This document shows positions 4,726 through 37,915 of a stretch of DNA of 54,228 nt, one piece after another (positions within the stretch are counted from its first letter, which is position 1; each line of letters begins with the position of its first letter). Under the pieces are notes generated by a model. It was not told where the DNA came from. It did no database searches and worked only from the letters and a program-made list of their open reading frames with translations. Source of the DNA: Lentisphaeria bacterium (GTDB taxonomy: Bacteria; Verrucomicrobiota; Lentisphaeria; Victivallales; Victivallaceae). The DNA is taken from positions 1 through 54,228 of the forward strand of contig JAGBZM010000003.1 in NCBI GenBank assembly GCA_017628235.1, given 5' to 3'. The position numbers were made by a program, and so were the translations under genes.

Positions 4726-4752
4726 TTGACAGTCGGTATTATTTTATATAAT
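4726..4752 (+). promoter_or_regulatory. Sigma-70-like promoter candidate for dapA
   Basis: TTGACA (4726-4731), a 15-nt spacer, then TATAAT (4747-4752). The spacer is shorter than optimal. Confidence 0.45.
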
Positions 4753-4801
4753 GACACAAGTTTTGATATTGTAACTTTATTTGAGGAAAGAGCCGGAGAT
4801 T

Positions 4802-12702: not shown

Positions 12703-12784
12703 ATGCAGGGGGGTGTCCTTTTTTATTTCCTGATGTCTGATCTATGCGGCGAAAAGGAACTTTATCAGGAAAGGAATGTGTGTT

Positions 12785-13426
12785 ATGGCAGAATTCAATT
12801 TCAACTGCCGGAATTGCGGCAATGAACTTCGTGCCGCTGAAGAGTATCGCGGCATGGAAACCCTGTGTCCGTTGTGCGGGAAAAATACTGTCATTATGGA
12901 AAATGAAGCAGCCGCCAGCAAAATCCCGGTTAAAAAAATACCGCAAAAAATATCGGCTGTCAGTGATTTTTATCAGAAAAACCGGAAATCCTGTCTGATC
13001 GGAACCGCGTGGGCGGCATCGTTGGCTGTTTCAGTCTTGGCGACCGCCATGCTGTGCCGGGACAATGCTGCAAAAGTCAATTCACAACCAGTTGCGGTTC
13101 CCGCAGTTACTGCTGCTGCCACCGATCCGTCCGAATCGATAAAAAATAACATTCACACTCTCATCAACAACTATCTGGATGCACTCCAGAGGGGGTCTTA
13201 CAATATTACCGGATATTTTGTCGATCCGCGTGAGATAACGACTTTTAAGGGTGACATCGATGATTGGAAAATTATCGGTACTTCCGATAAGCAGTGGAAC
13301 AGTAAACGCAATTATGTGAAAGTGATAATAAACTTTTCCGATGGTTCAGTCGCGCGCAAACATTATACTTTTCGTGTGGAACAGCACAATAATCAGTGGA
13401 AAATCGGTCGTGTCGGCGATTTTTAA
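12785..13426 (+). CDS. Zinc-ribbon membrane-anchored protein of unknown function
   Basis: CRNCGNEL...CPLCGK zinc ribbon, one TM helix (LIGTAWAASLAVSVLATAMLC) and a C-terminal alpha+beta domain. ATG 12785 is preferred over 12776 on SD spacing. Confidence 0.6.
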   Translation: MAEFNFNCRNCGNELRAAEEYRGMETLCPLCGKNTVIMENEAAASKIPVKKIPQKISAVSDFYQKNRKSCLIGTAWAASLAVSVLATAMLCRDNAAKVNSQPVAVPAVTAAATDPSESIKNNIHTLINNYLDALQRGSYNITGYFVDPREITTFKGDIDDWKIIGTSDKQWNSKRNYVKVIINFSDGSVARKHYTFRVEQHNNQWKIGRVGDF

Positions 13427-17535: not shown

Positions 17536-19572
17536 TCAATAGTGAAGTACGATCATTTGATGACAGAGCAATTCCGGCAGGGTGAATTCCACAGTTCCAT
17601 CCGGTTTCCCGGTAAAAGGCAGGGCAGTTCCCTGCGGTTCACAGGTTACTTCCCGGATGGTCCGGGGCAGGCGCAGGGTGAATTTGACATTGTGTACCGC
17701 TGTCAACTCATCAATGACCTCTACCGGCTGGGTTTCGCGGGTGTACCGGTTGAATGGTTCGCTTTTCATTCCGCGCAGCGAAATATTGGCATAAAGGGCG
17801 TGGAAGACAAAACGTTTTTCCTCCGGCTGGTCGAAAATCGTCACCCGGCCCTGCGACGGCAGCGAGGTTTCCACCTGAAGTTCACCGGCCATAAGAGCTT
17901 TGATGCTGTTGGCGATAAAACTTTTCAATATAACATTGCCGTAAAGAGCGTAGAGGGTGAATACCGGATGGGCGAAGTAGAGAATATTTTTGGTCAGTAC
18001 TCCGGCACTGTAAGCGGAACATTCCGGTTTGTTCGGGGTGTGCCGGTGCGAACAGAAGTGCTGCCAGGTGCGGACAAAGTACGGATCGTAAACGTCTCCG
18101 AGCGATTTGCCGCCTTTGACTTTGATTTTTACCGACGGCCGGTACATTACAAACGGAGTATTGACTCCGGGCGGGGCAAATTCCGGGCTGCAGGCGATGA
18201 AGTTGGGGATCTGATCGGTAATGCCGTCAAACTCCACCGGCAGGTCAAAGGCGGGAGTATCATTCTCTTTACAGAATACTGCTTCGCCGGAAACGATCAG
18301 TTTGCCGCCGTTTTCAAGAAATTTATTCAATTTGTCCCGCAGAACGGCATCCGGACGCAGATCGTCGGCCAGGATCAGCAGATCATATTTGCTGAAATCT
18401 CCGGTATCATCCAGCCGGTCAAAGGGGATGTGGGATTCCAGAAGCAGCCGGGAAATACCGATCTCCACGCGCTCATCCAACTTCAAAGGTTTATGGTAGC
18501 CGACATTGGAGATGATCGCGGTCCGGGCAAAACTTTTCACATTGCGGCACCAGGGTTCTTTGGTTTCCACTTCGGCGAAAGCGTTTCCGATCAGGCGGCA
18601 GGTGCTTTCATCGAGCATGCCGGTGGGGTGCAGCTGGTCACCGACACTGCATTTTGAACCGTTGGCGATCATGGCGCAGCACTCGTAACGCAGAGCATCG
18701 AAAGATTTGAAGCCGCCGAATTCACCCCAGCTGAAGTGAAATTTGCCGGTCATCCCCATAAAATCCTTATCCTGTGTGCGGCAGTAAGCCGCCAGCAGCG
18801 GATAGTGGTCATACCCCCAGCCGCCGGTAGGCAGACTTTCAAGTTCAAAGTGGCTGTAATGTTCAAAAAGGTCACGGTTGCCCGGAGAGAGCAGATTGCT
18901 GTTGTTGTGGAATACCGGCAGATCCGGATTGACACTGCGGGCGGCGGCGGTGATCCGCTGCAGATATTTTTTCAGGGTCCGGCGGTCGAAACGGAGACGG
19001 TCATTTTCATCTTCCGGATTGTAACCTTCGGCCAGCATATCGCTCATGCACCGGGGACAGCAGCACTGATGCTGGACAATGATATCAAAGAACATACCAT
19101 CGGCATCGGGGAACATCCGGGCAGCTTCGGCGGTCAAAGCTTCCAGATAGTCAAGGTAGGGTGAGTTGAAACACAAACAGCGGTAACCCGGTTCCAACGG
19201 GGATTTGGCCCAGGAAGCCAATTCACCTTTACTGTTTATTTCCAGCCAGCCGGGTTCTTTTTCTGCGATATAGTTATTCAGTCCGGCGGTCAGATAGATG
19301 GGAACTTTCACTCCGATCTCATGGCAGGCATCGATCTGGGCGCGGAGCAGATTGAAGTCAAGATGCGGATGCATCATCCCGATTTTGGTCGGGTGGTAGC
19401 TGTAACCGTGATGGCAGCAGGAAAAACAGGTTATCGAATCAGCATGCGCCATCTGTAATCTTTCCTGCCACAATTTTTTATCAAATTTACTGCCGATCCC
19501 CGGAATGTGCGGGGAGGTATGGAAATCCAAATGGATTTGACGGAAACGCAGATCATGTTTCATGGGCTTCAC
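17536..19572 (-). CDS. Putative glycoside hydrolase (GHL6-like TIM barrel plus GH42-type trimerisation-like domain)
   Basis: 678 aa. The N-terminus RFRQIHLDFHTSPHIPG is, from memory, typical of the hypothetical glycosyl hydrolase 6 family. No signal peptide. Confidence 0.65.
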   Translation of the reverse strand: MKPMKHDLRFRQIHLDFHTSPHIPGIGSKFDKKLWQERLQMAHADSITCFSCCHHGYSYHPTKIGMMHPHLDFNLLRAQIDACHEIGVKVPIYLTAGLNNYIAEKEPGWLEINSKGELASWAKSPLEPGYRCLCFNSPYLDYLEALTAEAARMFPDADGMFFDIIVQHQCCCPRCMSDMLAEGYNPEDENDRLRFDRRTLKKYLQRITAAARSVNPDLPVFHNNSNLLSPGNRDLFEHYSHFELESLPTGGWGYDHYPLLAAYCRTQDKDFMGMTGKFHFSWGEFGGFKSFDALRYECCAMIANGSKCSVGDQLHPTGMLDESTCRLIGNAFAEVETKEPWCRNVKSFARTAIISNVGYHKPLKLDERVEIGISRLLLESHIPFDRLDDTGDFSKYDLLILADDLRPDAVLRDKLNKFLENGGKLIVSGEAVFCKENDTPAFDLPVEFDGITDQIPNFIACSPEFAPPGVNTPFVMYRPSVKIKVKGGKSLGDVYDPYFVRTWQHFCSHRHTPNKPECSAYSAGVLTKNILYFAHPVFTLYALYGNVILKSFIANSIKALMAGELQVETSLPSQGRVTIFDQPEEKRFVFHALYANISLRGMKSEPFNRYTRETQPVEVIDELTAVHNVKFTLRLPRTIREVTCEPQGTALPFTGKPDGTVEFTLPELLCHQMIVLHY

Positions 19573-19790
19573 CTTTTCATAGCTTTTTGCTTGACCGTTG
19601 ATTTTGTTTTCCCGTTAACATAGCACGATACAAGGGCAATGTCAAGCTTGGGAAACTGGAAATATTTTCAAACAACATGTTGAAAAATGTCAAATCTGTG
19701 CTATTTTTTACAAGGAGATGAGGTAATCGGAAAAGTTAATCAAAAAAGGATTGAAAAGATACCGTTGGTGAGATGAAAGAGGTAGTTTGA

Positions 19791-19864
19791 TCCGCCGTCG
19801 CCCTTCGGGTTATGGCGGGACAAGGAGGCTGCCCAAAGCGTTAACACCCGAAAACGCTCCTGTC
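19791..19864 (+). promoter_or_regulatory. Structured element in the leader of the GNAT gene (unclassified)
   Basis: The first stem is TCCGCC/GGCGGGA. A second is GACA(A)GGAG/CTCCTGTC, which encloses AGCGTT/AACGCT. The loop CCCGAA (19847-19852) is complementary to TTCGGG (19804-19809). Confidence 0.3.
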
Positions 19865-19937
19865 TCAGATCGCAGCGGGAATTTTCAGGATTTTGAAGTT
19901 GCCTCAAGAACATTATTGATATTTACCGGAGAGAAAA

Positions 19938-20384
19938 ATGATTATCCGTTTGAGTAAAGAGTATGACGACATTGCTGCCATCCACGATGCTTTGTACACC
20001 TACAACCTGTCGAAAACCGGTGAAGACCGGATCGATGTCCATGCCAAACATGAGGCGGAAGCAGAGGCGATGCTGGCTTGTGATGAGAGTGGAAAAGCAC
20101 ACGGCGGAATTGCGTTTCACTGGCAGAATGATCCGCGCCGGGTCTTTTTGGACTACTTTTTTCTGGATGACACTCTGCGCGGCGGCGGCAACGGCAAATA
20201 TATCTTTGAGCAGTTCCTCGCCCGGGTCAAAGCCGCCGGTGCGGTACGGGTCGATCTGACGACCAATACCTTTCAGGCTCCGGGATTTTATCAGAAAATG
20301 GGCTTCCGGATCGTTGCCGGAGAACCCAATCCGGTAAGACTGGTTCCGGAAAATATCCATTATACCATGCAGAAAGAATTTTGA
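19938..20384 (+). CDS. GNAT-family N-acetyltransferase
   Basis: 148 aa with an acetyl-CoA-binding motif region (RGGGNGKYIFEQF) and a C-terminal FYQKMGF. Confidence 0.85.
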   Translation: MIIRLSKEYDDIAAIHDALYTYNLSKTGEDRIDVHAKHEAEAEAMLACDESGKAHGGIAFHWQNDPRRVFLDYFFLDDTLRGGGNGKYIFEQFLARVKAAGAVRVDLTTNTFQAPGFYQKMGFRIVAGEPNPVRLVPENIHYTMQKEF

Positions 20385-20426
20385 TTTCCATACTCAGGCA
20401 GCGGCCGACGTGCCGTTGTGATAAAC

Positions 20427-20457
20427 GCGCCCCCTTTTGCCGGGCGCATTTTTTTTA
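20427..20457 (+). terminator. Intrinsic terminator of the GNAT gene
   Basis: GCGCCC/GGGCGC stem followed by ATTTTTTTT. Confidence 0.75.
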
Positions 20458-20542
20458 TCCTGCGGCGGCCGGCCAAAGCTCATGAAAAGCAGTGAAAAGC
20501 AGTTTCTTTGAAAAAAATCCTTTCCGAAAGTGCCAAAAACAC

Positions 20543-20571
20543 TTGACATGAATGGAAAGTTGGATTATGTT
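20543..20571 (+). promoter_or_regulatory. Sigma-70-like promoter flanked by a 7-bp inverted repeat (possible operator)
   Basis: TTGACA (20543-20548), a 17-nt spacer, then TATGTT (20566-20571). AACACTT (20538-20544) and AAGTGTT (20574-20580) bracket it. Confidence 0.5.
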
Positions 20572-20618
20572 TAAAGTGTTGATAATCATGAAATGGCAGA
20601 TGAAAAGGTGAAGAAAAA

Positions 20619-21671
20619 ATGATTATTCCCGGCAACCGTCGGATAACTCCCGGCAAGGTGGAAATTCTGGAGCAGGAGCTGCTGCAGGAACTGCAATCCG
20701 GAAAGTTTATCCATGATGACCGTTTCTATTCTGTCCGGGAGGTATCGGAAAAATATCAGGTGACGATGACGACAGCTTACCGGGCATTATCCGGCTTGAT
20801 CCGGCAGCGGTATCTTACCGGGCGCAACGGTTTGGGGGTATATGTCAATCTGCCGGAAACCAGACCTTTGCAGCTGGTGGCTGTGCCGCTGCGTTTGCGG
20901 GGTAATCCGCAGGTGTTGGATTTTTACGAAGCTTTATCCGCAGTAGCCGAGAAACGCGGTATCCGGCTGCTGATGGGCAATGGTGAACACTGTGATACTG
21001 AAATCGCATTTCTGCAGAAAGCGATTGCGGTTTCAGTGGATGGGGTGATCCGTTTCCCCTGCGGAGTAGGCGGAGTTGAGACCCGGGTCAGAAAAGAACT
21101 TTCCCGGCATCAGCTGCCGTGTGTGGCGGTCAATGACTGGTGGCGGTCAGGATGTTTTCCGACGGTGAAAACTGATGAAACGGACGGTTTGAATAGGATC
21201 ATGGATGCGCTTTATGCGGTCGGACACCGCAAAATTGCGCTGGTTCAGGAGACATTCAATGCCGCGCGGCCGGAGATCCAGCGGGCATTCTGGCGGTGGC
21301 ATTGGGAACATGATCTGCCGGTGGAATCTGATAACATATGTTACTGTCTTTCCGGCGGATTGCCGATGGCGTTGAGTCTGCACAAAATGCGGCAGTCCGG
21401 GGTGACGGCATTGCTCTTTTCCTACGGGATCAATATTCATGATATCTGGGACCGGGAAAACCGTGAGCTGCTGCCGCAATTCACTCTGGCGGCTCTGGAT
21501 GATATTCCGCTGGCGGAAACAGAGTTATTTGCCGCTTACCGTCATGATGATGTAAAAATGGCGGAAAAGGCATTTGACCTGCTGGAAAATTTCGGGTGCA
21601 ATCCGGTTGAATTGGTCGAAATTCCCGGAAAATTGATAATCAATACAAACCAAAATCGGTTAACAACATGA
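20619..21671 (+). CDS. GntR-type wHTH regulator fused to a LacI/PBP1-like sugar-binding domain
   Basis: The N-terminal wHTH is [39 protein letters not shown]. The remaining roughly 270 aa have periplasmic-binding-protein-like alternation. Confidence 0.8.
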
Positions 21672-21684
21672 AAGGAACCGGAAA

Positions 21685-22353
<669 letters not shown>

Positions 22354-22381
22354 TATTGGATAAGGGGAGCAGTTGAAAATT

Positions 22382-23800
22382 ATGAGAAAGTTTATAGTTA
22401 TGGGTTTGATGGCAGCCGGAGTCGCGGTTATGGCGGGAAGTTTGAAAATCGATGTGGATAGTCATGATATCGCGGTGCGTCCGGCGATCCCGGTGGTGAA
22501 TGCTCCGGCAGTACTGGCGGTGCGGGTCTCCGGAGCTATCTCCGGAATGCCGCTGACAGTCACCGCTGAAGTTGACGGCAGAAAAATCGGAGAAGTACAG
22601 CTCGCCGCCGGAAAAAATGAAGCGTTATTCGATTATAAACCGGAGAGTACCGGTTGGAAAAAAGTTTCCGTTACCGCCAAATGCGGCAAAGAGAGTGCCG
22701 TCGCGGAAAAGGTATTCCCGGTAACTGCCCGGAAACTGCATTTCCCCTGGTTCGGCAGTCACGATAATGAGGGAAAACTGGAATTGTGCAAATATCCGAC
22801 GATGGTTCTGGCAAAAAATGCCGGAGATATCGCTTACTGGAAACATCGAGGTGTGATGACCGGTAAGTGGCGGGGCGCAAAATTCAATGAGAAACAGGGG
22901 ATCGCCGAAGCCATGAAGTATTACCGCCGGGGGACGGAGGGATTTGATGCTATTATGATCGACGAGATCGGCAGTTATGATGACTTCAAGCTCCGGGAAA
23001 GTACCGAGTACAAGGGGCTGAAAGAGTTTTGTGCGGTCAACGAGGATCTCTTTGTCGCACTCTGGGTGTGCGGGGTGCCGACCACTTCCACGCTGAATCT
23101 GGCCAAAGGCCTTTACCGCAAAAAAGGTGTCGATCTGCTGATGCTGGAAAATTATGTGAATTATCTTATTCCCGATCTGAAAAGTTTCCGGCCCGATGAC
23201 ACCATGCGCTTCCGGATCGATCTGGCGCGCCGTCAGGATGTTCTGCACAGCTCCGTTATCACGGTCGGCATTCACGGCAATGCCAAAATTTTTACCATGA
23301 CCAATGACGAATTGGAAGAACAGGTGCGTACCATCAAACGCCTTGCTCCGGAAATGCCGGGTATGGGAATTTATGCCACCGGCAAAAAGATGACCAACCG
23401 GCCGCTGATATTCTTCGCGGATGAATTGTGTGCCAAATACTTTATTTCTCCGGTATTGACCCTCTATCCCAAAGCGATCCGGATCATTGACACGCCGGTG
23501 GCGGGAAAAAAGGTCAAAATCATCGGCAGAGTTTCCAATGCCGGCGGAATGGATTCCGGGGCGGTCACGGTCAATTTTTACTGCGGCAATCCGGCTTACG
23601 GCGGTAAACTTATCGGCAGCAGTAAAATCAACAGCGTACCGGCTTTCCGCATGGAGAGTTATCCGCTTCCGGCCGCCGTTGAGATCGACTGGACTCCGGA
23701 AAAACGCGGCAGTACTGAGATTTTCATGGAGATCATCCCGGAAAAAATGAGTGATACGCTGTTGGATCATCAGCAGATACTGCCGGTAATGGTACGGTGA
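22382..23800 (+). CDS. Secreted protein of unknown function: Ig-like domain, conserved TIM-like core, then C-terminal CARDB-like domain (paralogue A)
   Basis: Signal peptide MRKFIVMGLMAAGVAVMAG. The core shares colinear motifs with the next gene. The start could instead be TTG 22373. Confidence 0.7.
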   Translation: MRKFIVMGLMAAGVAVMAGSLKIDVDSHDIAVRPAIPVVNAPAVLAVRVSGAISGMPLTVTAEVDGRKIGEVQLAAGKNEALFDYKPESTGWKKVSVTAKCGKESAVAEKVFPVTARKLHFPWFGSHDNEGKLELCKYPTMVLAKNAGDIAYWKHRGVMTGKWRGAKFNEKQGIAEAMKYYRRGTEGFDAIMIDEIGSYDDFKLRESTEYKGLKEFCAVNEDLFVALWVCGVPTTSTLNLAKGLYRKKGVDLLMLENYVNYLIPDLKSFRPDDTMRFRIDLARRQDVLHSSVITVGIHGNAKIFTMTNDELEEQVRTIKRLAPEMPGMGIYATGKKMTNRPLIFFADELCAKYFISPVLTLYPKAIRIIDTPVAGKKVKIIGRVSNAGGMDSGAVTVNFYCGNPAYGGKLIGSSKINSVPAFRMESYPLPAAVEIDWTPEKRGSTEIFMEIIPEKMSDTLLDHQQILPVMVR

Positions 23801-23804
23801 AAAG

Positions 23805-25376
23805 ATGAAAAAGTTATGGTTGATTTCAGTTTTACTGCCGTTGTATCTGGGGGCTTTGGAGATCACAGAGTGCCGTCCGGCCGGCGGTAAAACACTGGTG
23901 GCGTGGAAAAATGCCCCGGCAGAATATGTGATGATCTACCGTTATTCGGAAAAGATCACTCCGCAAAATATCTTTTTTGCCGTTCGCCAGCGGTGCCGGG
24001 CCGCCGACGGCAGCTGCCTGATCGTGCCGAAGTCCGGCGGTCAGGGCTACTATATGGTGACATCGTGCGATAAATTCGGCAGAGAAACCCGCGATTATAC
24101 CATTCAGGCCGGGCCGGTGGATGAGAATCCGGCTTATACTTTGCCGCCGGTGGATTTTTCAGTCCGGAGTGACAAGCAGGGAACGAGGCTGGTGTGGAAA
24201 CCGCTGCCGCTGGAGATCCGGGGCATGAGCCGGACAATACAGCTCAAAAACAAGGCCGGTAAAGTTATTGAACAAGCACCGGTGTCCGCGACAGAATTCC
24301 GTCTGCCTGCGCCGCAGCCGGGGAAAAGCGAATTTTATACGGTGTGCATTCAGGATGTGAATGGCAGGGATTCTGCCGCAAAAAGTTACTTCTGTTACGG
24401 GGATTTCCCTGACTTCATGATCGATGGCCAAAGTAATGTGGTGAAAAATCAGGATGTCTTCTTGAGTACCCGCTATCCGGTTACCGGCCGGGAAAACCGT
24501 ATAGCGTTCCGGATAAGCAACTGCGGCGGAAAGGCTGGCAGTGCCGAAGTCACTCTGCCGGGGGTGATCCGGGAAAAGATTTCTCTGGACCCCGGAGAAT
24601 CGGTGATGGTCGCAGGAAATTGGCAGCCGGAAAAACGGGGAAAACATCAGCTGGCTTTGAATATCGCCGCCGACAGTGACCGGCAGAAGGAGAATAATTC
24701 ACTTCTGCTGCAGCTGCATGCGGCAGATAAGCCGCTGCACTTCATCTGGTACGGAAATGCCGCTGAATTGGATCACGCTACCGCCGGGACAGATAATCCG
24801 GAACACTGGAAACGGGTTGGCGGTAAAAGATTGCATATTTGTGTCAAATCGGATGATATTTCCGGTTACCATAAGATACTTGATTCAACGGATGCTCCGG
24901 ATGGTTTGCAGTATGATGAACTGGGCGGAAATATTGAACCGGAAAAATATATTTCCGTATTGCGCCAGTTGCGGAAAACCCATCCGCAGGCATTTATCGC
25001 TCTCTGGCACATCGGGGCAAATCTCAAGCCGGAAATCGTTGAAGCTCTGAAAGATGGTACGATCGATCTGGTGATGCCGGAGCGTTATCATACCTTTAAT
25101 GCTCCGATGGAAGAGAGTTTGAAAAAGGATATAAATATGCTTCGCCGGGTGGGCGTGCTGGATAAAACCATCATCGGTTTGGGCACTCACCGTAATTACG
25201 CCGGATTCGGCAGCGCGGAAGATCATGCGGCTTATCTGGAAAAACAGATCGCTCTGATTCGCAAACTTGCTCCGGAATCGCCGGGAATGGCATTTTTCAG
25301 TGCGGCCACATTGCCGGGATTGAAAGAGAAGGTCGATGATATGTGCCGGAAGTATTTTTTGGAAGGGGATAAATAA
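23805..25376 (+). CDS. Secreted protein of unknown function: beta-sandwich domains plus the same TIM-like core (paralogue B)
   Basis: Signal peptide MKKLWLISVLLPLYLGA. The C-terminal 215 aa align with paralogue A (PLHFIWYG, YDELG, FIALWHIG, DLVMPERY, IRKLAPESPGM, CRKYF). Confidence 0.7.
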   Translation: MKKLWLISVLLPLYLGALEITECRPAGGKTLVAWKNAPAEYVMIYRYSEKITPQNIFFAVRQRCRAADGSCLIVPKSGGQGYYMVTSCDKFGRETRDYTIQAGPVDENPAYTLPPVDFSVRSDKQGTRLVWKPLPLEIRGMSRTIQLKNKAGKVIEQAPVSATEFRLPAPQPGKSEFYTVCIQDVNGRDSAAKSYFCYGDFPDFMIDGQSNVVKNQDVFLSTRYPVTGRENRIAFRISNCGGKAGSAEVTLPGVIREKISLDPGESVMVAGNWQPEKRGKHQLALNIAADSDRQKENNSLLLQLHAADKPLHFIWYGNAAELDHATAGTDNPEHWKRVGGKRLHICVKSDDISGYHKILDSTDAPDGLQYDELGGNIEPEKYISVLRQLRKTHPQAFIALWHIGANLKPEIVEALKDGTIDLVMPERYHTFNAPMEESLKKDINMLRRVGVLDKTIIGLGTHRNYAGFGSAEDHAAYLEKQIALIRKLAPESPGMAFFSAATLPGLKEKVDDMCRKYFLEGDK

Positions 25377-25442
25377 GATGCTGCAATCTTATTTGCCGGG
25401 AAAATTTTACAAAAATTGAAACAATAGAAAGGAAAAAAGAAA

Positions 25443-26114
25443 ATGAAAAAAATCATGATGCTCCTCGCGCTGTCGGTTCTCGGTGCAGCAGCGGCAGAAC
25501 CCAAAACCGTCAAATTTGATTTTGCCACCCAGCCGGAACTGGCAGAGGCCACTTACAAAGATGTCCGCAATTTGGAGTATATGGAGCGATCCATCGCCAT
25601 CCCGCCGGTTTCCGGACAGAATTTTCAGGTGGAATTCAAACTTGCTGTCACCAATATCAAACCTTACGGCAATATCTGGGTGGGCGTATCCAACAGCAAA
25701 AGGAAAATGCAGAATGCTTTTGTCCGTTTCGGCAAATCCGATTCCGGAGCATTGCTTCACTTTTATTCCGGAGTGAGTTTCGGCAAGCCGGTCACTGCCA
25801 AACCCTGGAAAGGTCTGCAGAAACAGGATTATATCGTGCGTATCGAATATAACGCCGGAAGTATGCAGATCCGTTATCAGATCAGTGACGGCAGCGGCAA
25901 GCAGCTCCATGATACCGGTTTTGTCACCTGCCGGGTGCCGCTGAATCCGGACCGGATCTCCATCCGGGTTAATGACAATCCTGATTTCGGAGTCAGTACG
26001 ATCAATTACAATGCGGAAAAACAGTCTGTTTTTGCCCGCAGTCTGATCGGTTACGAGGGCAACACTCCGTATATGCTGGAAATGGAGATCAAAGAGGTCA
26101 CTCTGGTATTTTAA
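25443..26114 (+). CDS. Small secreted protein of unknown function
   Basis: Signal peptide MKKIMMLLALSVLGAAAA. The 223-aa sequence reads by eye as strand-rich (possibly a beta-sandwich), which is an impression only. No family recognised. Confidence 0.65.
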   Translation: MKKIMMLLALSVLGAAAAEPKTVKFDFATQPELAEATYKDVRNLEYMERSIAIPPVSGQNFQVEFKLAVTNIKPYGNIWVGVSNSKRKMQNAFVRFGKSDSGALLHFYSGVSFGKPVTAKPWKGLQKQDYIVRIEYNAGSMQIRYQISDGSGKQLHDTGFVTCRVPLNPDRISIRVNDNPDFGVSTINYNAEKQSVFARSLIGYEGNTPYMLEMEIKEVTLVF

Positions 26115-26120
26115 CGGCGA

Positions 26121-28556
26121 TCACCGTTTGACCGAGTGACGCATGGGAAGTGCGCGCGCCGGATCTTCGGGCCATTCGTGCTTGGGATAGCGGCCGCGCA
26201 TTTCGCTTCTTACCAGCTTCCACGATCCCTGCCAGAATCCCGGCAGGTCACAGCTTATCTGCACCGGCCGCCGGGCGGGAGAGAGCAATTCTATGCGCAG
26301 CGGTATGTGGTTTTTGCCGACAACCGGATGGGTGGTTACTCCGTAAAGTTGTTGGATCTGAATGGATAAAGTCGGTTGCTCTCCGGAGTAGTCGATGGGA
26401 AAAGTCATTCCGGTCGGGGCAGTGAAAAATTCCGGGCAGAAGCGTTCAAGCATCTGCAGTACATTAAAATCCAGATTATTGTGCAGCAGGTGATGCCAGT
26501 TGGTTTTTTTCAAATCAGCGAGCGAATTGATATTGTCCGGAAAATATGGAGCCAGCGAGAGCAGAAAGTCGGCGTTTATTTCCGGTACTCCGGTCAATCC
26601 GCTGTTTCTGGCGAAGTTTAATCTGACCGCCAGCGCATGCGCCCGTTTGTCTTCCGGCGGCGGCAGTTCAATTCTCCGGCGGAATGCTTCTTTGAGCAGG
26701 GCCGGAATGATCATTGCGCGTGAAGTGGCACACGGGCGGCTGTGCAAAGTAAGTTCACCGAGCTTTCGTTCATTGAATGAGAGCAGTTTTTCCGTATTCT
26801 GATCAAAGATGGTCGTACATTTTTCGGCAATGCGTCCGGCAAAATATTTTTCGATACTCTCTTTTTTTACCGGTACTGCCAGCCGGACGGCAGCATTGGC
26901 CGACGCAGTACCGTCAAGTCTGGCAATGGCGATGAACTCCTCCTGGCGCAGGAAATCATCTTCCTGAACGGCAGCGGCACTGCCGTTGGCCAACTGGTAG
27001 ATGACGGTGTTTTCTGTCCGGCGGCGGGCGATCCATTCCGGAAAAGCGATGGCGACCGGCAAACCGCAATCGGCATTTTCCGGTTCGACTTCCGGTGGAA
27101 AGAGCTTCAGCAGTCGCTGATACACGCTCTTTTGAATGTGAAAACTGCTGTTATTGGCGAGCATCCGGCGGAATCTTTCCTGCAGATCCGCAGTGTTGTA
27201 AGCGGCAAAATCATCTTTCTCCTCCAGTATTGCTGCGAATCCGGCGGCTATCCGGCGCAATTCCGGCGGTGAAAAGATCATCATCGCTGCGAGCCGGGGT
27301 GAAAGCGGCAGTGCGGCAGCCTTTTTTCCGGCGGAAGACGGACGGTTGTCCGGGGTGAAAAGAGCCAGTTCCCGCAAAAGTTTTTCTCCGGCGGCAACCG
27401 CCGGAAGCGGCGGGGCATCCATAAATTGCAAATCATCGATCCGGCTTCCCCAGCATCCGATGGCAAGACACAAACCGGAGAGTTCCGTCCGCAGTATCTC
27501 CGGCGGTATGGAACTGTTCATCCGGTCAAAGGTGAGGCGGTCGAAACAGCGGATCGCCACTCCCGGCGCAGTACGTCCGGCCCGTCCGGCCCGCTGGATG
27601 GCTGAAGCCCGGGTGATCCTCCGGTTTTCCAGAAAGTTCATCTGCGCCCCCGGCTGCCATTCCGCACGTTTCTCCCAACCGCAGTCGATCACGCAATCCA
27701 CATGGTCAATGGTCAGACTGCTTTCCGCGACGTTGGTGGCCAGAATTATTTTGCGGATACCCGGCGGCACCGGTGATAAAGCTGCCCGCTGCCGGTCCAG
27801 CGGGAGCGAACCATGCAGCTGACAGATGATAAAACCTTGATCTTGGAGGTGCTGCAGCATTTCGGAACAACGGGATATTTCCATCGCCCCCGGCAGGAAT
27901 ACGAGAATATGTCCCGGTGTGACATGCAGATTTTCCAATACGGCTCTGGCGGTCATCCGGGGAATGTCCCGGGGATGGGCGATATTTTCCCGGTAACGGA
28001 TGTCCACCGGGAAGCCCCGTCCGGGAACGGTTATTACCGGAGATGAGAGAAATTGTCCGGTTCTTTCATGTTCCATTGTCGCAGACATCACCGTTAAAAG
28101 CAGATCTTCCCGCAAAGAAGAACGCATATCCAGTACCAATGCCAGAGCCAGATCCGCATCGGCTGAGCGTTCATGGAATTCATCAAAGATCAGTGCGGAA
28201 ACTTTTTCCAGAGCCGGATCTTCCTGCAGCATCTGCAGTAAAATCCCCGGAGTGACCGCAAGAATACCGTCATCATCACATCTGCAGGATTCTCCGCGCA
28301 CGACAAACCCGGTGTCCCGGCCTGTTTGCAGACCGTGCATACCGGCAATGCCGTGTGCAGCGGCTCTGGCGGCGATCCGGCGCGGTTCGACCAGAACAGT
28401 CAGACCGCCGGAAGCAAGAGAACGGACCAGCACCGGAACCAGCATCGTTTTTCCGGCTCCCGGTTCAGCGGCGATGACGGCACACTTTTTTTCCTGCAGC
28501 GCGGCAGAGATCCGGTCGAGGTGATGAAACAGTGGAAGTTCAGGAAAGTTATTCAT
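26121..28556 (-). CDS. hrpB: ATP-dependent RNA helicase HrpB (DEAH-box)
   Basis: 811 aa with GAGKT, DEFHERS, the HA2/OB region and the HrpB C-terminal domain. Confidence 0.92.
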   Translation of the reverse strand: MNNFPELPLFHHLDRISAALQEKKCAVIAAEPGAGKTMLVPVLVRSLASGGLTVLVEPRRIAARAAAHGIAGMHGLQTGRDTGFVVRGESCRCDDDGILAVTPGILLQMLQEDPALEKVSALIFDEFHERSADADLALALVLDMRSSLREDLLLTVMSATMEHERTGQFLSSPVITVPGRGFPVDIRYRENIAHPRDIPRMTARAVLENLHVTPGHILVFLPGAMEISRCSEMLQHLQDQGFIICQLHGSLPLDRQRAALSPVPPGIRKIILATNVAESSLTIDHVDCVIDCGWEKRAEWQPGAQMNFLENRRITRASAIQRAGRAGRTAPGVAIRCFDRLTFDRMNSSIPPEILRTELSGLCLAIGCWGSRIDDLQFMDAPPLPAVAAGEKLLRELALFTPDNRPSSAGKKAAALPLSPRLAAMMIFSPPELRRIAAGFAAILEEKDDFAAYNTADLQERFRRMLANNSSFHIQKSVYQRLLKLFPPEVEPENADCGLPVAIAFPEWIARRRTENTVIYQLANGSAAAVQEDDFLRQEEFIAIARLDGTASANAAVRLAVPVKKESIEKYFAGRIAEKCTTIFDQNTEKLLSFNERKLGELTLHSRPCATSRAMIIPALLKEAFRRRIELPPPEDKRAHALAVRLNFARNSGLTGVPEINADFLLSLAPYFPDNINSLADLKKTNWHHLLHNNLDFNVLQMLERFCPEFFTAPTGMTFPIDYSGEQPTLSIQIQQLYGVTTHPVVGKNHIPLRIELLSPARRPVQISCDLPGFWQGSWKLVRSEMRGRYPKHEWPEDPARALPMRHSVKR

Positions 28557-30596: not shown

Positions 30597-32561
30597 GTGT
30601 TATTAACCCAACAGAAAGGTGGAAAATTGGATAAAACAGAAGAATACAAACGTACGGATGACCGGGCGCGATTGCTGACCAAACTGTCAGTGATCGGGGG
30701 AATCGGGTCATTGATCTTGCTGATTGCGGTGCTGATTCTGGCGGCGAAGCGCGGCGGAGATGTCTTGTCTCTGGCGGCAGTGCCGTTTGCATTGGCACTT
30801 TTGTTTTCGGCGGTATCATTCATCTACGGTATCCTTTACGGTGCGGTGCAGCGGGAGGATGAGGAAAAGCGTCTGCTGGCCAAACGGATGGAGAGCCGGG
30901 CTCTGAATGTGGAGGAGGATGTCCGCTTTACCGCCGGGAGAAGTTTTACCAATTACACCCGTTTTGCTCCCTTTGTGATCGCCGCAGCGGCAATGGTGGT
31001 GATCGGTTTGATGTTGTGGAATAACGTGGAAACCTGGAGCTTGCGGAAAGATGCCGGAGTGGTGATGACCGGTTCGCCGGTGCATACTGCACTGATCGCG
31101 GCGGTGCTGATGATGGTCAGCGTGCTGTCCGGAGCATTTATGGTCGGTCAGTCCCGGATGCCGGGATTCCGCTGGCTGCGTCCGGTGGGCGCATGGCTGA
31201 TGATGGGATTTCTCACGCTTTGCGCCGCAGCGGTTTCCGCACTTTTTTACAGCAACAACATTGTGGAGGTCGATCCGGTTGTTTCCAAAGTGTTTTTCTG
31301 GATTTTCGTGGTGCTTGGCGGGGAATTTGTCGTCAATGCCGTGATTGAATTTTACCGTCCGCGCACGATCGGTGAGAGCCGTCCGGTCTTCGAGAGTCAG
31401 CTTTTGGCACTCTTTACCGAACCCGGCGGTGTATTGCGCAATATTGCTTCAGCCCTGGACTATCAATTCGGTTTCAAAGTTTCCGGTACCTGGATCTACG
31501 GATTTATTGAAAGATCATTTTTCCCGGTGCTGATCCTGTGGGGTGTGCTGTTCTGGGGATTCACGGCGGTGCATGAGGTCGGCCCCAATAATGTCGGTAT
31601 CCGCGAACAATTCGGCAAAGCCCTTACCGGCGAGGTACTTACTCCCGGTATTTATTGGACTTTACCGTATCCTTTCGGTACGATCCGGCAATTCAGCTGT
31701 ACCGAAGTCAAACGCCTGGTGATCGGTGAAAGCTCCGAAAGTGCCAAAGAGCGTGCCGCTTCGCCGGTGGTGCTGTGGACCAATGAACACGGCGTGGCCA
31801 AAGACCCGTTTGTGGTAGCGGTGAAAGAACCGGAAGTCAGAAGCGCGGATAAAAGTGCATTGAGTCTGGAAAGTTCAAGTATCTCATTTGTCAATATGGC
31901 CATCCCGATCGAGTACCGTATCCGGGAAGACGGAGTGGTCAAGTATGCTTACGGCAATGCCGATCCGGATGCGGTGATGAAAAAACTCGGTGAACAGGCG
32001 GTGGTCGAATTTCTGGCCGGTACGACGATGGAGGATTTCATGGCTTCCGGTCGCGGCCGCGCTGAAGCGGTACTGCAGCAGAATCTGCAGAAACTGGCCG
32101 ATCAGAATGAGTTGGGCGTGGAGATCATCCGCGTGGCGATCATGGATGCTCACCCGCCGGTGGAGAATGTCGCTCCGGCGTACCAGAATGTGATTGCTTC
32201 CATCGAGGAGCGTCAGACTGAAACTCTCAAGGCCGAAGCATACCGCAATACCGTGCTGCCGGCAGCGGAAGCTGCCGCATTCGGGATCGAAAAATCTGCT
32301 TTCAGCCGGGCCGAAAGTGCCAAGATCATTGCTGAAGCTGAAAGTGAACGCTTCAGCGAACAGCTTAAAGCATTCCGCAGTATGCCGCAGATGTTTATGC
32401 TCAACGCCCGAATGGAGGCTCTGGAAACTGACGGTGCCTCCATTCAGAAGTATGTGGTTCCGGCGGATATCAAAGACATGGTCTACCAGATGAATTTCGA
32501 GAAAAATGAACGGCTGGATCTGGTGAATCTGGATGTGTCCGAATTGAGTGATAAAAATTAA
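30597..32561 (+). CDS. Polytopic membrane protein with a C-terminal SPFH/band-7 domain
   Basis: About 330 aa with multiple TM helices, then the SPFH core (VGIREQFGK...PGIYWTLPYPFG) and a coiled-coil tail. The start is uncertain: GTG 30597 is followed by two TTA codons, and TTG 30627 is the alternative. Confidence 0.75.
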   Translation: MLLTQQKGGKLDKTEEYKRTDDRARLLTKLSVIGGIGSLILLIAVLILAAKRGGDVLSLAAVPFALALLFSAVSFIYGILYGAVQREDEEKRLLAKRMESRALNVEEDVRFTAGRSFTNYTRFAPFVIAAAAMVVIGLMLWNNVETWSLRKDAGVVMTGSPVHTALIAAVLMMVSVLSGAFMVGQSRMPGFRWLRPVGAWLMMGFLTLCAAAVSALFYSNNIVEVDPVVSKVFFWIFVVLGGEFVVNAVIEFYRPRTIGESRPVFESQLLALFTEPGGVLRNIASALDYQFGFKVSGTWIYGFIERSFFPVLILWGVLFWGFTAVHEVGPNNVGIREQFGKALTGEVLTPGIYWTLPYPFGTIRQFSCTEVKRLVIGESSESAKERAASPVVLWTNEHGVAKDPFVVAVKEPEVRSADKSALSLESSSISFVNMAIPIEYRIREDGVVKYAYGNADPDAVMKKLGEQAVVEFLAGTTMEDFMASGRGRAEAVLQQNLQKLADQNELGVEIIRVAIMDAHPPVENVAPAYQNVIASIEERQTETLKAEAYRNTVLPAAEAAAFGIEKSAFSRAESAKIIAEAESERFSEQLKAFRSMPQMFMLNARMEALETDGASIQKYVVPADIKDMVYQMNFEKNERLDLVNLDVSELSDKN

Positions 32562-32600
32562 CAATAAATAATATATAATATTTGGAGGCAGAATAGAATT

Positions 32601-33530
32601 ATGGCAAAGGGAAATTTTTTCAAACATTGGCCGACGATGTTTCTCGGTCTGATCGTGGCACTGATTTTGCTTACGGCGGTATTTTCGTTCCAGCTCAATC
32701 AGACTGAAGTGGCGGTACTCACGACTTTCGGCAGACCTTCGGTGGTCGAGGAAGCCGGACTGCACTTCCGCTGGCCGTTCCCGTTTCAGAAAGTTTACCG
32801 TTTCGACAAACGTATCCGTTGTTACGAGGGCAGCAGCGGCAAACTGGAAGAGACCGTGACCGAGGACGGACACAATATCATCGTCGGTATCTATGTCAAC
32901 TACCGGATCAGCGCAGTGGAAACGTTTTTCAGCAAACTCAAAGATATTTCCAATGCGGAGGATGTGCTGAACACTTTGATGCGGAGCGCGAAAAACACCG
33001 CTTTCGGCAAACGGAAATTCGATCAGGTGGTGAATGCTGACGGCAACATGCTCAAACTCAATGAGATCATGGCTGAGATCCAGAGTACTCTCACCCGTGA
33101 CACTTCTGCATTCGGCATCGAGATCGTCGATGTCGGCATCAACAGTCTGGGCGTACCGAAAACTGTTACCGAAAAGGTCTTTGAAAGAATGATCGCGGAA
33201 CGTAAACGCTTCGCGGATGAAAACATCTCCAAAGGTAAGAGCGAAGCGGAAAAGATCCGGGTCGAAGCCAATTTGGAACGCGATCAGAAGATCGCCCGCG
33301 CCGAGGCCGATGCTCTGAAACTGCGCGCGCAGGGTGATGCGGAAGCGGCTAAATTTTACAAGGAATTTGCCAAAGATCCGCAGCTTGCCGAGTTTCTCCG
33401 TAAGATCGAAGCTCTCCGGGTGATGATGAGAGGACGTACCACGATGGTGGTCAATACCGATATGCCGCCTTTTGATCTGTTGAAGCCCGGAACGGTTATT
33501 CCCGGGGTCAAAGCTTCTGAAACCAAGTAA
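32601..33530 (+). CDS. hflC: SPFH/band-7 protein, HflC-like
   Basis: N-terminal TM helix, then VLTTFGRP...GLHFRWPFPFQKV, GIEIVDVGINSLGVP and a MIAERKR coiled coil. Confidence 0.8.
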   Translation: MAKGNFFKHWPTMFLGLIVALILLTAVFSFQLNQTEVAVLTTFGRPSVVEEAGLHFRWPFPFQKVYRFDKRIRCYEGSSGKLEETVTEDGHNIIVGIYVNYRISAVETFFSKLKDISNAEDVLNTLMRSAKNTAFGKRKFDQVVNADGNMLKLNEIMAEIQSTLTRDTSAFGIEIVDVGINSLGVPKTVTEKVFERMIAERKRFADENISKGKSEAEKIRVEANLERDQKIARAEADALKLRAQGDAEAAKFYKEFAKDPQLAEFLRKIEALRVMMRGRTTMVVNTDMPPFDLLKPGTVIPGVKASETK

Positions 33531-33542
33531 CAAGGAGCGATC

Positions 33543-34682
33543 ATGGAGGACAACAAAAGCGTAATAACCAATGAATTCGACCGCAGCGGCCGTTATGATG
33601 CCGGGTTGAAGTCTTTGGCCAAAAGTCTGCGCGTGGCGTTTCTGCTGCTGTTGATCGGCATTATCGCCACCTTGATTTACTTTGTCAGCGGCGCGGGATA
33701 CTTTTCGGTTGAACCGCAGCAGGCGGTGATCGTGAGCCGTTTCGGCCGGATCGCCGGGACTTATACTTCCGGCGGACACTGGTTCCTGCCTTTCCCGGTC
33801 AATCAATTTATCCGGGTGCAGACCAGTCAGCAGCTGCTGGAAGTGGATTTCTCTGCCGCCGCAACTCCCAATGGCGGCGGTGATTCTCTGGAACCGGGCC
33901 GTGATACCTATGTGATGACCGGCGATGCGAATATTGTTCACAGTTCGTGGACCATCGCGTACCGGGTGGATAATCCGGAAAAGTTCTACTGCAATCTGCT
34001 TACTCCCCTGTTTCCGGTGGAAAACGGCAAAGTTACTCCCGATGATGAATTCAAAGATGCCGACGGTATGACCGGCACTCGCGGTCCGGTGACACTGTTG
34101 CGCAATCTTTTCCGGCGGGCAGTAATTACTGTTACCGCGCAATCGGTGGTCAACGACATCCTTTACGCCGGACAGAGCAAATACAGCGATGATGTGCGGC
34201 GGGAATTTGCCCGGCTGGTGACAGCCCATGATTGCGGTATCGTGATCGAAAATGTCGGATTGAACCGCATTTATCCGCCGGTGAAGACCAAAGAGGCGTT
34301 TGAAGAGGTCACTTCGGCAGCCAATGCCAGTTCGGCCTTGCGTAATGAAGCACTGGCTTACAAGGTCACTCAGGAAAATGAAGCGGTTTCCCGCAGTGCA
34401 GCGATCATTGCCGCTGCTGAAGCGTATAAAAACCGGATCACCGCCCAGCTGGAGGCCCAGAGCGACCATTTCAATAAGATTTACGAACAGCACCGGAATA
34501 ATCCAGGCACTCTGACGATGGCTCTGTACACAGAAATGCTCAAAGAGGTCGCCGCCGATGTCTATAAAGACGGTGACAAATTCGTGCTTGGTCCTCAGGG
34601 AAGCGGCAAATCTCTCTGGCTCAAACTTAACCGTGAACCGAAAACATCCACCGCTGCCGACGGTGCGGGGGAGGGTAAATAA
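33543..34682 (+). CDS. hflK: SPFH/band-7 protein, HflK-like
   Basis: Cytoplasmic tail plus a TM helix, then VIVSRFGRI...GGHWFLPFPV and MTGDANIVHSSWTIAYRVDNPEKFY. Confidence 0.75.
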   Translation: MEDNKSVITNEFDRSGRYDAGLKSLAKSLRVAFLLLLIGIIATLIYFVSGAGYFSVEPQQAVIVSRFGRIAGTYTSGGHWFLPFPVNQFIRVQTSQQLLEVDFSAAATPNGGGDSLEPGRDTYVMTGDANIVHSSWTIAYRVDNPEKFYCNLLTPLFPVENGKVTPDDEFKDADGMTGTRGPVTLLRNLFRRAVITVTAQSVVNDILYAGQSKYSDDVRREFARLVTAHDCGIVIENVGLNRIYPPVKTKEAFEEVTSAANASSALRNEALAYKVTQENEAVSRSAAIIAAAEAYKNRITAQLEAQSDHFNKIYEQHRNNPGTLTMALYTEMLKEVAADVYKDGDKFVLGPQGSGKSLWLKLNREPKTSTAADGAGEGK

Positions 34683-36739: not shown

Positions 36740-37915
36740 ATGGAAAACAACTATGAACCGGTGGTGCAGGCAGTCGGCTTGACCAAAATGTTCCGGGATT
36801 TCTGGCACCGTCCGAAAGCCCGGGCGGTGAACGGTATTGATTTTGAGATCAAGCCAGGAGAAGTGGTCGGTTTGCTCGGTCCCAACGGTTCGGGTAAATC
36901 CACGACGGTGAAAATGCTTCTGGGGCTGCTTTATCCCACCGGCGGTAAGGTGACGGTTTTCGGGAAATCTCCCCGGGAAGTGGAGACTAAACGGGAGATC
37001 GGTTATCTGCCGGAGGAGTCATATCTTTATAAATTTCTGACTGCCGAAGAGACACTGAACTTTTTCGGTTCGCTTTTCAATATTTCGGCAGAGGACCGGA
37101 AGCGGCGCATCGATCAGCTGCTGGATATGGTCGGTCTGGCCCATGCGCGTTACCGCCGGGTCGGAGAATTTTCCAAAGGTATGGCACGGCGTATCGGTCT
37201 GGCCCAGGCGATGATCAATGACCCGGCGTTTCTGATCCTTGATGAACCGACCAGCGGTCTTGACCCGTTAGGATGCCGGGAGGTGAAAGATTTGATCCTC
37301 GCGCTGAAAAAACGGGGCAAAACGGTGCTTATCACCAGCCATCTGCTCAGCGATGTGGAAGATATCTGCGACCGGGTGATCATTCTGTACGGCGGCAAGA
37401 TCCGGGCTGAAGGAGCATTGGATGAATTGCTTACCGTCAGTGACAAAACCCGCATCCTTACTCCCCAGCTGCCGAAAGAGGCGATGGAAAAACTGCTCGG
37501 TCTGCTCCGGGAAAATCTGCATGGCGAACAATTCAATGTTGACCATCCCCGGCGGACACTGGAAGAATTTTTCCTCGATGTTATTTCACAAGCCAGACGG
37601 GAAAGTGTGGAAACAGCCGGTGTTTCCGGTTCCGGCGGCATAGCTGAATATCTGGTCGGTGATAAAGAAGATAAAAATGCGGTACTCAATTCGCTTCTGC
37701 AGGAAACTCCGGTTGAAGAGAAAACTGCGGCAGTTGCGGCAGCTGTTCCGGCAAAGAGCAGTGCGGATGAGAAGATCGCTTCGGTACTTGAAACGGAAAA
37801 AACGGCAGCGGTATCAGAGGCTCCGGCGACTGCCCGGTCTGGCGATACGGCAGAGAATATCCGCCGGGCCAATGATAAGTTGGATTCGCTGCTCGGCGGT
37901 AAATCAGGTGAATGA
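36740..37915 (+). CDS. ABC transporter ATP-binding protein (ABC-2 type) with a disordered C-terminal extension
   Basis: Walker A GPNGSGKST, signature FSKGMARR and Walker B FLILDEPTSGLD. ATG 36740 lies 7 nt after AAAAGGA. Confidence 0.9.
   Translation: MENNYEPVVQAVGLTKMFRDFWHRPKARAVNGIDFEIKPGEVVGLLGPNGSGKSTTVKMLLGLLYPTGGKVTVFGKSPREVETKREIGYLPEESYLYKFLTAEETLNFFGSLFNISAEDRKRRIDQLLDMVGLAHARYRRVGEFSKGMARRIGLAQAMINDPAFLILDEPTSGLDPLGCREVKDLILALKKRGKTVLITSHLLSDVEDICDRVIILYGGKIRAEGALDELLTVSDKTRILTPQLPKEAMEKLLGLLRENLHGEQFNVDHPRRTLEEFFLDVISQARRESVETAGVSGSGGIAEYLVGDKEDKNAVLNSLLQETPVEEKTAAVAAAVPAKSSADEKIASVLETEKTAAVSEAPATARSGDTAENIRRANDKLDSLLGGKSGE

Follow-up and report, generated by a model that had tools for sequence, protein, structure and literature searches.

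The SusC/SusD polysaccharide utilization loci (PULs) of Bacteroidota cluster a regulator with secreted glycan-active enzymes and contain an adjacent SusC-like TonB-dependent transporter and SusD-like lipoprotein. We analyzed a 54,228-nucleotide stretch of DNA from Lentisphaeria bacterium, a gut or rumen organism (GenBank assembly GCA_017628235.1, contig JAGBZM010000003.1, positions 1 to 54,228 of the forward strand; hereafter "the window") in which five adjacent genes encode a regulator, a pilin-like protein with an H-X9-DG motif, two paralogous signal-peptide proteins (A and B), and a small signal-peptide protein (small). The locus is similar to a PUL in that a regulator is clustered with secreted, putatively glycan-active proteins, and differs in having a pilin-like protein as the non-enzymatic partner. 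Pfam scans of 35 window open reading frames (ORFs) revealed no SusC/SusD pair, TonB-dependent receptor or transporter, or sugar ABC importer, in agreement with a first-pass annotation of the sequence. Three Band_7 ORFs (30597-34682) stood outside these scans and were assigned only from the annotation of a related locus (L001). The suggestion in the first-pass annotation that such a locus would replace a classical PUL is a framing and not a finding. We consider the chances about even that the locus is an extracytoplasmic glycan-processing module, consisting of an H-X9-DG pilin-like protein, two barrel enzymes, and a small partner, under an AraR-like sugar-responsive repressor. The fold of A and the genomic context support a glycan-acting module with a dedicated pilin-like partner.

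Other described systems are comparable with single components of the locus. AraR of Bacillus subtilis is a GntR-family regulator with a LacI/GalR-type effector domain, and heads a carbohydrate-related operon. Proteins of the H-X9-DG/DUF1559 (SBP_bac_10) type, which have an N-terminal methylation-type helix and a C-terminal H-X9-DG motif, belong to the gene families with the greatest expansion in Planctomycetes, Verrucomicrobia, and Lentisphaerae, and have no established function. Their genes are heavily expanded and spread evenly round Planctomycetes genomes, and in one planctomycete are often flanked by signal-peptide genes (PMC8567305). The literature that we found on H-X9-DG, DUF1559, or pilin-like proteins in connection with glycan use consists of genome and proteome surveys and includes no functional study, as the first-pass annotation implied. 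For the paralogues, the relevant enzymes are glycoside hydrolases (GHs) with a barrel fold. In the GH20 enzyme DspB, an adjacent Asp-Glu is the catalytic pair; D474 of PgaB aligns with the DspB Asp, and PgaB lacks the second catalytic Glu (PMC5933820).

Gene organization and conservation of the locus

The five genes lie on the plus strand with short gaps, at the positions given by the first-pass annotation: the regulator gene (20619-21671; ORF of 350 aa), the pilin-like gene (21685-22353; 222 aa), the genes of paralogue A (22373-23800; 475 aa) and paralogue B (23805-25376; 523 aa), and the small gene (25443-26114; 223 aa). The intergenic gaps are 13, 19, 4, and 66 nt in 5′ to 3′ direction, and no strong internal terminator was found within the five-gene locus. 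A hairpin followed by a T-run (20423-20455, plus strand; inverted repeat AAACGCGCCC/GGGCGCATTT, then T8) is located 3′ of the upstream GNAT gene and is probably the terminator of the GNAT unit; thus, the five genes look like a transcription unit of their own. PADLOC defence models matched none of the five proteins, and a reading of the locus as a defence system was therefore dropped.

Gene neighborhoods were surveyed in 81 loci and annotated contigs by tblastn, a hidden Markov model (HMM) of the core domain shared by A and B, a prepilin-motif scan, and gene maps. The pilin-like, A, B, and small genes were co-conserved, and the regulator gene was not part of the conserved core. As judged from these gene maps, the conserved unit is four genes, not the five proposed by the first-pass annotation. 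The four-gene unit was present in seven or more divergent Lentisphaeria/Victivallales lineages and in one Chthoniobacterales genome, with the genes arranged as pilin, A, B, small or as A, B, small, pilin (L001-L005, L008-L011, L013-L017, L085/L086). Identity of A among module-bearing loci ranged from 93% down to 26% (26-53% across lineages, with some gene-order changes). The unit was found in the window's own lineage (L001-L003, L008, L009); in a lineage with A 53% identical, in which a third A-like paralogue is also present and small genes number two (L004, L010, L011, L047); in a lineage with A 35% identical, where the pilin gene comes last, after A, B, and small (L005, L012); in rumen Victivallales (L013, L014, L016); in L015 and L085/L086; and in the Chthoniobacterales genome (L017). 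In L083, a more distant member, CBM96, pilin-like, and core genes directly follow one another.

The small gene was directly downstream of B in L001-L005, L008, L009, L011, L013, L015-L017, and L047, and was duplicated in some lineages. Small homologues also adjoin the core gene in Fuerstiella (L020), where a core gene and two small genes are present with no pilin-like gene. Searches with phmmer and a 12-sequence profile revealed no Pfam or PDB relative of the small protein. It appears to be a secreted orphan protein.

The core of A and B is a previously undescribed and widespread barrel family, as judged by profile searches. An exhaustive profile search revealed 456 representative clusters (50% identity) at E ≤1e-3 and 300 at E ≤1e-10, and core loci numbered 74 in species-representative genomes. 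The family occurs in Lentisphaeria/Victivallales, Chthoniobacterales, Planctomycetota, Armatimonadota, Acidobacteriota, Latescibacterota, Gemmatimonadaceae, Poribacteria, Aminicenantes, Hydrogenedentales, and one Thermoplasmatota metagenome-assembled genome. Neither Pfam nor the solved structures include this family, which spans at least 10 phyla. If its members are glycosidases, it would represent an unrecognized family of carbohydrate-active enzymes (CAZymes) in gut, rumen, soil, and marine genomes, and the glycan-degradation potential of these organisms would be under-counted.

Predicted structure and active site of paralogues A and B

BLASTP of A against B gave E 1e-16 with 24% identity over 346 aa, which confirmed their paralogy. 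N-terminal hydrophobic signal-like segments were read by eye from the sequences of A, B, and small, consistent with their earlier description as signal-peptide proteins. The AlphaFold2 model of A, made from a 23-sequence alignment, had a predicted local distance difference test (pLDDT) score of 86.5 and a predicted template modeling (pTM) score of 0.86. In this model, a signal peptide is followed by an Ig-like sandwich (residues ~25-118), a (β/α)8 barrel (~120-360), and a CARDB-like sandwich (~361-475). B has a signal peptide, ~300 aa of N-terminal β-rich domains, and a barrel core (~305-520); the core profile matched residues 305-520 in P0016, which represents the cluster of B and is 98% identical to it. 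CARDB (PF07705; gathering score 22.7 bits) matched A (15.9 bits) and B (15.3 bits) weakly, and the CARDB-like nuclear magnetic resonance structure 2kut matched A residues 373-424 (phmmer, E 5e-5); phmmer of A and B against PDB sequences gave nothing beyond this match on the A C-terminus. When the A core was modeled alone (pLDDT 82.5), eight alternating strand/helix units were observed, as in a (β/α)8 fold.

Residues D197, E198, E259, and Y261 were invariant in a joint alignment of A and B relatives, and several Trp, Gly, and Pro residues of the barrel were also invariant or nearly so. The D-E, E-x-Y, and P...G motifs were ≥90% conserved in 88 far more distant family members. By the strand assignments of the predicted model, D197/E198 end β4 (193-197) and E259/Y261 end β6 (255-260), which would place them on the catalytic face of the triosephosphate isomerase (TIM) barrel. 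Conserved Trp and Tyr together with acidic residues on this face are typical of glycosidases. We propose that the active site consists of the Asp-Glu pair after β4 and the Glu and Tyr on β6, and that A and B are most likely glycoside hydrolases.

In a full-length Foldseek search with the A model, 50 of the 50 top matches were glycoside hydrolases, mostly GH2, with E ~1e-13 and template modeling (TM) score ~0.3. The GH2 β-glucuronidases and β-mannosidases that led these matches have the same succession of Ig-like sandwich, TIM barrel, and Ig-like sandwich. In contrast to them, A and B have no Pfam GH2 match, and the GH2 (clan GH-A) nucleophile Glu is on β7, where the A/B family has no conserved acid. 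The low TM score reflects differing domain orientations; it was judged uninformative for the core, and the core was therefore modeled and searched alone. The best core-only matches were the PgaB/BpsB C-terminal domain (GH153), GH18 chitinases, a GH18-like protein, GH53, BT_0435, GH20, and GH5.

The GH20 (DspB) and GH18 enzymes of clan GH-K, which are among the top core matches, share with A a (β/α)8 barrel that has acidic residues at the C-terminal end of β4. D197-E198 after β4 of A is like the adjacent Asp-Glu pair of GH20, a resemblance only and not a sequence membership, and Y261 is like the conserved Tyr on β6 that is a feature of GH18. The A/B family differs from both in having an extra invariant Glu on β6; TM scores were 0.47-0.63, and no sequence similarity to the A/B core was detected. 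The GH18 motif DxxDxDxE is absent from A, which reads FDAIMIDEIG at β4. The predicted arrangement would thus resemble that of GH20- and GH18-type enzymes, which cleave glycans containing N-acetylhexosamine, and hexosaminidase-like chemistry is a reasonable guess by analogy.

The relationship of the core to glycoside hydrolases is structural, and the comparison leaves room for a different function. A and B may act on a non-glycan substrate (lipid, peptide, or phosphoester) or may be inert surface proteins, in which case their likeness to glycoside hydrolases would be generic TIM-barrel similarity. Core-only scores were weak (E 1.5e-5 to 1e-3, TM 0.46-0.63), and aldolases, HMG-CoA lyase, and malate synthase were interleaved among the matches at E ~1e-4, so that non-glycosidase barrels scored nearly as well as the glycosidases at TM ~0.6. 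Pfam and NCBIfam GH models did not match the core in A, B, or the 88 distant members, and the core profile gave only chance FSP1 matches against PDB sequences. Kinship of the core with GH18/GHL6 was tried with hhalign and rejected at probabilities of 0.1-0.3 (0.1 for the GH18 of L005; the GHL6 protein of the window was the other comparison). The orphan small protein offers no functional clue, and ceramidase and peptidase genes are found near some relatives. Nevertheless, we regard this alternative as unlikely: glycoside hydrolases made up all of the top full-length matches, the domains fused to family members are of carbohydrate-binding types, CAZyme neighbors recur in independent lineages, and the conserved Trp, Tyr, and acidic residues lie on the predicted catalytic face. 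The core mapped to no known non-glycan family. The structure comparison suggested by the first-pass annotation thus placed glycoside hydrolases as the nearest folds, with modest similarity (TM 0.57-0.63) and other barrels near; it points weakly to glycoside hydrolases as the best structural affinity and is not decisive.

One lineage differs in the A leader. In L004, L010, and L011 (P0004-P0008), A starts with a lipobox-like L-x-x-G-C, whereas the signal peptide of the window A has no Cys; this motif suggests that A of the 53%-identity lineage is a lipoprotein.

Carbohydrate-related context

Among the 88 distant family members, 39 carry a CARDB domain (best E 2e-16); Big_7, Laminin_G_3, GH2_N, CBM96, F5/8 type C, and NPCBM_assoc domains occur in a few members each. 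The genes neighboring the family include carbohydrate-related ones. Neighboring genes encode a GH78 protein, a PIG-L deacetylase, and an M24 peptidase in the L001 relatives; a Pel9A-like β-helix protein and an FAD oxidoreductase in another relative; GH18, sulfatase, and URO-D-like proteins in L005; GH95, GH123, ADP-ribosylglycohydrolase, GH42M/CBM4_9, and FGGY kinase in L082; and CBM96 and BNR proteins beside another family member. In the window, a divergently oriented GHL6 gene (17536-19572) is located just upstream of the locus, and genes for a melibiase-like protein, a SASA esterase, an aldose epimerase, and an FGGY kinase are found further away.

This context also bears on the direction in which a glycan-acting module would work. 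PgaB, PelA, Sph3, and BcsZ play a polymer-trimming role in biosynthetic systems. The window module could likewise trim or remodel a self-made polymer (exopolysaccharide, capsule, or envelope glycan), and not serve feeding on external glycan. The best core-only match (E 1.5e-5, TM 0.57) was the GH153 domain of PgaB/BpsB, an exopolysaccharide-processing hydrolase (PMC5933820). This domain is a periplasmic or extracytoplasmic barrel with an acidic β4 residue, features that A and B are predicted to share. Next to a distant family member (L084) is an oppositely oriented GT2 chitin-synthase-like gene, the module has a GNAT gene (window) or PIG-L deacetylase gene (L001) as a neighbor, and several lineages have no adjacent sugar-responsive regulator. 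However, PgaB carries a fused deacetylase and belongs to a synthase operon, and the PgaB/BpsB sequences show no relationship to A or B. Neither the window nor most module loci contained a glycosyltransferase, polymerase, or export gene, and the neighbors of relatives are catabolic CAZymes, sulfatases, and sugar kinases. The AraR-like and LacI-type repressors that accompany some of the modules are typical of catabolic operons. We regard action on a self-made polymer as improbable.

URO-D-like genes (PF01208) recur beside family members at two unrelated loci, in both cases among CAZyme/sulfatase genes (L005, 7168-8307 and 10012-11106; L082, 10506-11609).

The pilin-like protein and its association with the module

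The pilin-like protein passed TIGR02532 (22.7 bits; cutoff 16.3) and scored just below the cutoff of Pfam N_methyl (PF07963; 20.2 vs 21.2 bits). It has a hydrophobic N-terminal helix and a globular domain that ends in H182-X9-D192-G193, a motif kept in 12 of 12 aligned orthologues. These features agree with its designation as an H-X9-DG prepilin-type protein by the first-pass annotation. TIGR04294 (cutoff 19 bits) gave no match to the window protein even at E 10, but was passed by its orthologues in L005 (24.0 bits) and L017 (23.5 bits). Similarly, PF07596 (DUF1559/SBP_bac_10; gathering score 23.3 bits) did not match the window protein but was passed by the orthologues in L005, L013, and L015 (35.6-47.4 bits), to which the window protein is homologous (tblastn E 6.6e-14). 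The window protein shares the helix and the motif with H-X9-DG/DUF1559 proteins, whose family models its orthologues pass, and genes of this type are reported to have signal-peptide genes often at their flanks (PMC8567305). It differs from them in falling below both models, in its tie to one specific conserved enzyme set, and in the residue at position -1 before FTLIE, which is Arg (KRTR|FTLIE) and not the canonical Gly. Gly at -1 of GFxxxE is needed for cleavage by prepilin peptidase. It was absent in 10 of 11 orthologues with an intact motif, which have Arg, Thr, Pro, Ala, Val, or Ser, and was present only in L017 (Chthoniobacterales).

Because H-X9-DG genes are so numerous and evenly spread in Planctomycetes (PMC8567305), the pilin-like gene could be a bystander whose adjacency to the A, B, and small genes follows from sheer gene number. 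The prepilin-motif scan covered up to 20 kb per locus. It detected 13 prepilin-like ORFs in the 81 loci, all 13 of which adjoin the module, and the pilin-like gene is the only such ORF in the 54 kb window. Gene-family density therefore does not account for the adjacency. The association was also present in every module-bearing lineage with enough flanking sequence, including those in which gene order has changed. These findings make a bystander role very improbable and indicate, at the level of gene content, that co-conservation of the pilin-like partner with A, B, and small is specific.

We propose that the pilin-like protein is most likely located in the inner membrane by its N-terminal helix, and that it would either retain the enzymes at the envelope or pass them on to a type II secretion-like apparatus whose genes lie elsewhere. 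A broader proposal, to which we assign a low probability, is that H-X9-DG proteins in general are cargo-specific adaptors, with each copy serving its own neighboring set of secreted enzymes (here A, B, and small), which it would dock to a shared pseudopilus or type II secretion system (T2SS)-like apparatus or tether at the envelope. As a separate part of this proposal, the A/B core would represent a new GH family in many phyla. Such adaptors would explain why dozens to hundreds of H-X9-DG genes are scattered beside signal-peptide genes, and would represent an organization of glycan harvesting distinct from SusC/SusD loci. The tight pairing with one enzyme set provides a small, tractable system for testing the role of an H-X9-DG protein.

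The regulator and the upstream region

The first-pass annotation described the regulator as a GntR winged-helix protein with a sugar-binding domain. This architecture was recovered, with every domain match below threshold. The GntR winged helix (PF00392) matched at E 9.5e-6 and 25.6 bits, just under the Pfam cutoff of 27, and the GntR protein 3tqn matched at E 0.0022. Weak LacI/RbsR-type sugar-binding matches were found over residues ~80-212; the NCBIfam RbsR, CytR, and CcpA models matched residues ~97-213 with E values of 7e-6 to 4e-3, falling far short of the model cutoffs, and the LacI-family protein 4o5a matched at E 1.3e-5. Taken together, these sub-threshold matches suggest an AraR-like protein with an N-terminal GntR winged helix and a C-terminal LacI/RbsR-type sugar-binding fold. 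As in AraR, the gene heads a putatively carbohydrate-related operon. In contrast to AraR, the domain matches are weak and the gene is not conserved with the module.

A candidate sigma-70 promoter (TTGACA-17-TATGTT; 20543-20571, plus strand) with a 10/12 consensus match is located upstream of the regulator gene, and a perfect 7-nt inverted repeat, AACACTT/AAGTGTT (20538-20544 and 20574-20580), brackets it. Both features are present as reported in the first-pass annotation. In L001-L003, both promoter hexamers and the right repeat arm were invariant, and the left arm had one mismatch (in the closest relative). Promoter-like sites were not enriched in the region (11 observed vs 9.0 expected); a promoter at this site is plausible from its position and conservation. 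The chance of some 7-mer inverted repeat in the intergenic region upstream of the regulator was ~31%, and that of one bracketing the promoter was ~1%, a value judged post hoc. Given these frequencies and the left-arm mismatch, the inverted repeat is a weak operator candidate. An alternative candidate regulatory element is the tandem direct repeat TGAAAAGCAG x2 (20483-20502, plus strand) upstream of the -35 hexamer. Its TGAAAAG-N3-TGAAAAG core was invariant in L001-L003 though the bases around the core diverge, and it is thus conserved at least as well as the inverted repeat; the 7-mer TGAAAAG occurs 26 times in the 54 kb window.

A third TGAAAAG copy, at 20601, was rejected as an operator half-site on account of its overlap with the likely ribosome-binding site AAGGTG. 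The string at this copy is also found before the GHL6 start codon: TGAAAAGGTG occurs before the regulator start (20601-20610) and, on the minus strand, before the annotated GTG start of GHL6 (19570-19579). It is probably a ribosome-binding context common to the two genes, and GHL6 may in fact start at the ATG that lies three codons downstream of the annotated GTG.

In the L004/L010/L011 lineage, the promoters have another element (CCTATTCACACCTATTCA), and for this reason they neither support nor refute the inverted repeat. The element GACCTATTCACACCTATTCA, a tandem CCTATTCA repeat, abuts TTGACA-17-TATAAT at L004 ~5030-5100 and ~8840-8910, L010 ~1265-1330, and L011 ~2993-3050. In L004, a flavoprotein gene lies between the regulator and pilin-like genes, and GACCTATTCACACCTATTCA with TTGACA-17-TATAAT precedes both units; this repeated promoter element indicates that the two units are likely co-regulated. 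In L005, where a LacI-type regulator heads the module, a perfect 20-nt palindrome (TACCGCAAACGTTTGCGGTA; ~205-235) upstream of the regulator gene is a candidate for a typical LacI-family operator.

Evaluation of the proposed glycan-processing module

In the proposed mechanism, the pilin-like, A, B, and small genes follow the AraR-like repressor gene behind one promoter. They would therefore probably be switched on by a sugar or oligosaccharide.

Several observations weigh against this proposal. The weak core-only scores, the interleaved non-glycosidase barrels, and the failure of GH models, PDB sequences, and hhalign to connect the core with a glycosidase family have been described above. Most of the distant family members, in other phyla, stand alone with no pilin or small gene. 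The non-Gly residue at -1 makes canonical prepilin-peptidase cleavage doubtful, and no assembly ATPase, platform protein, secretin, or prepilin peptidase of a T2SS or type IV pilus was found among the scanned ORFs of the window, as the first-pass annotation had stated. The domain matches of the regulator are all sub-threshold. Regulator orthologues adjoin the module only in the window's own lineage and the 53%-identity lineage (L001-L004, L008, L010, L011), and in L013, L014, and L016 the gene upstream of the module is PheS, with no regulator. As judged from gene content, the regulator is optional and outside the conserved core; several lineages lack it or have one of another type.

The sugar-inducible extracellular glycan-acting module proposed by the first-pass annotation is thus upheld in part. 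Its glycan-acting component is favored by the predicted TIM barrel with GH-like structural neighbors, the conserved acidic residues, the fusions to carbohydrate-binding modules, and the CAZyme neighbors. Sugar induction, an extracellular location, and an anchoring role of the pilin-like protein are inferred; the regulator lies outside the conserved core, and the inverted repeat is a weak operator candidate.

Other sequence features of the window and its relatives

Nucleotide identity between the window (22282-26181) and L001, the closest relative and another Lentisphaerae species, changes within the locus. It was ~62-88% in the flanks, ~90% in gene A, and 98-100% in B and small (23782-26181), and returned to 65-84% right after the small stop codon. 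The corresponding protein identities were 75% for the regulator, 62% for the pilin, 93% for A, 98.7% for B, and 100% for small. The B-small block looks like a recent recombination or transfer between species; an assembly chimera in the window is an alternative source of the identity jump.

Synteny with the 93%-identity relatives breaks directly upstream of the regulator promoter. The window has GHL6 (minus strand) and GNAT genes at 17536-20384; the relatives have same-strand genes for a GH78 rhamnosidase, an unknown protein, a PIG-L deacetylase, and an M24 peptidase (L001, 1-8000). Downstream, HrpB, XerC-like, SH3, and Band_7 genes are common to the window and these relatives. In L002 (11424-12991, JGI contig), B is split by a frameshift, with residues 1-464 and 465-523 in different frames, reflecting either a sequencing error or a pseudogene.

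Nine window ORFs outside the locus had no Pfam match at the thresholds used. Eight sizeable ORFs with no match (threshold 1e-5; 1e-3 for 12776-13426) are located at 1518-2438, 2607-3365, 3415-4044, 4113-4757, 12776-13426, 37912-40961, and 50620-51603. Two ORFs of this kind (476 and 540 aa) are located after a gene for an ABC ATPase, whose permeases they may encode.

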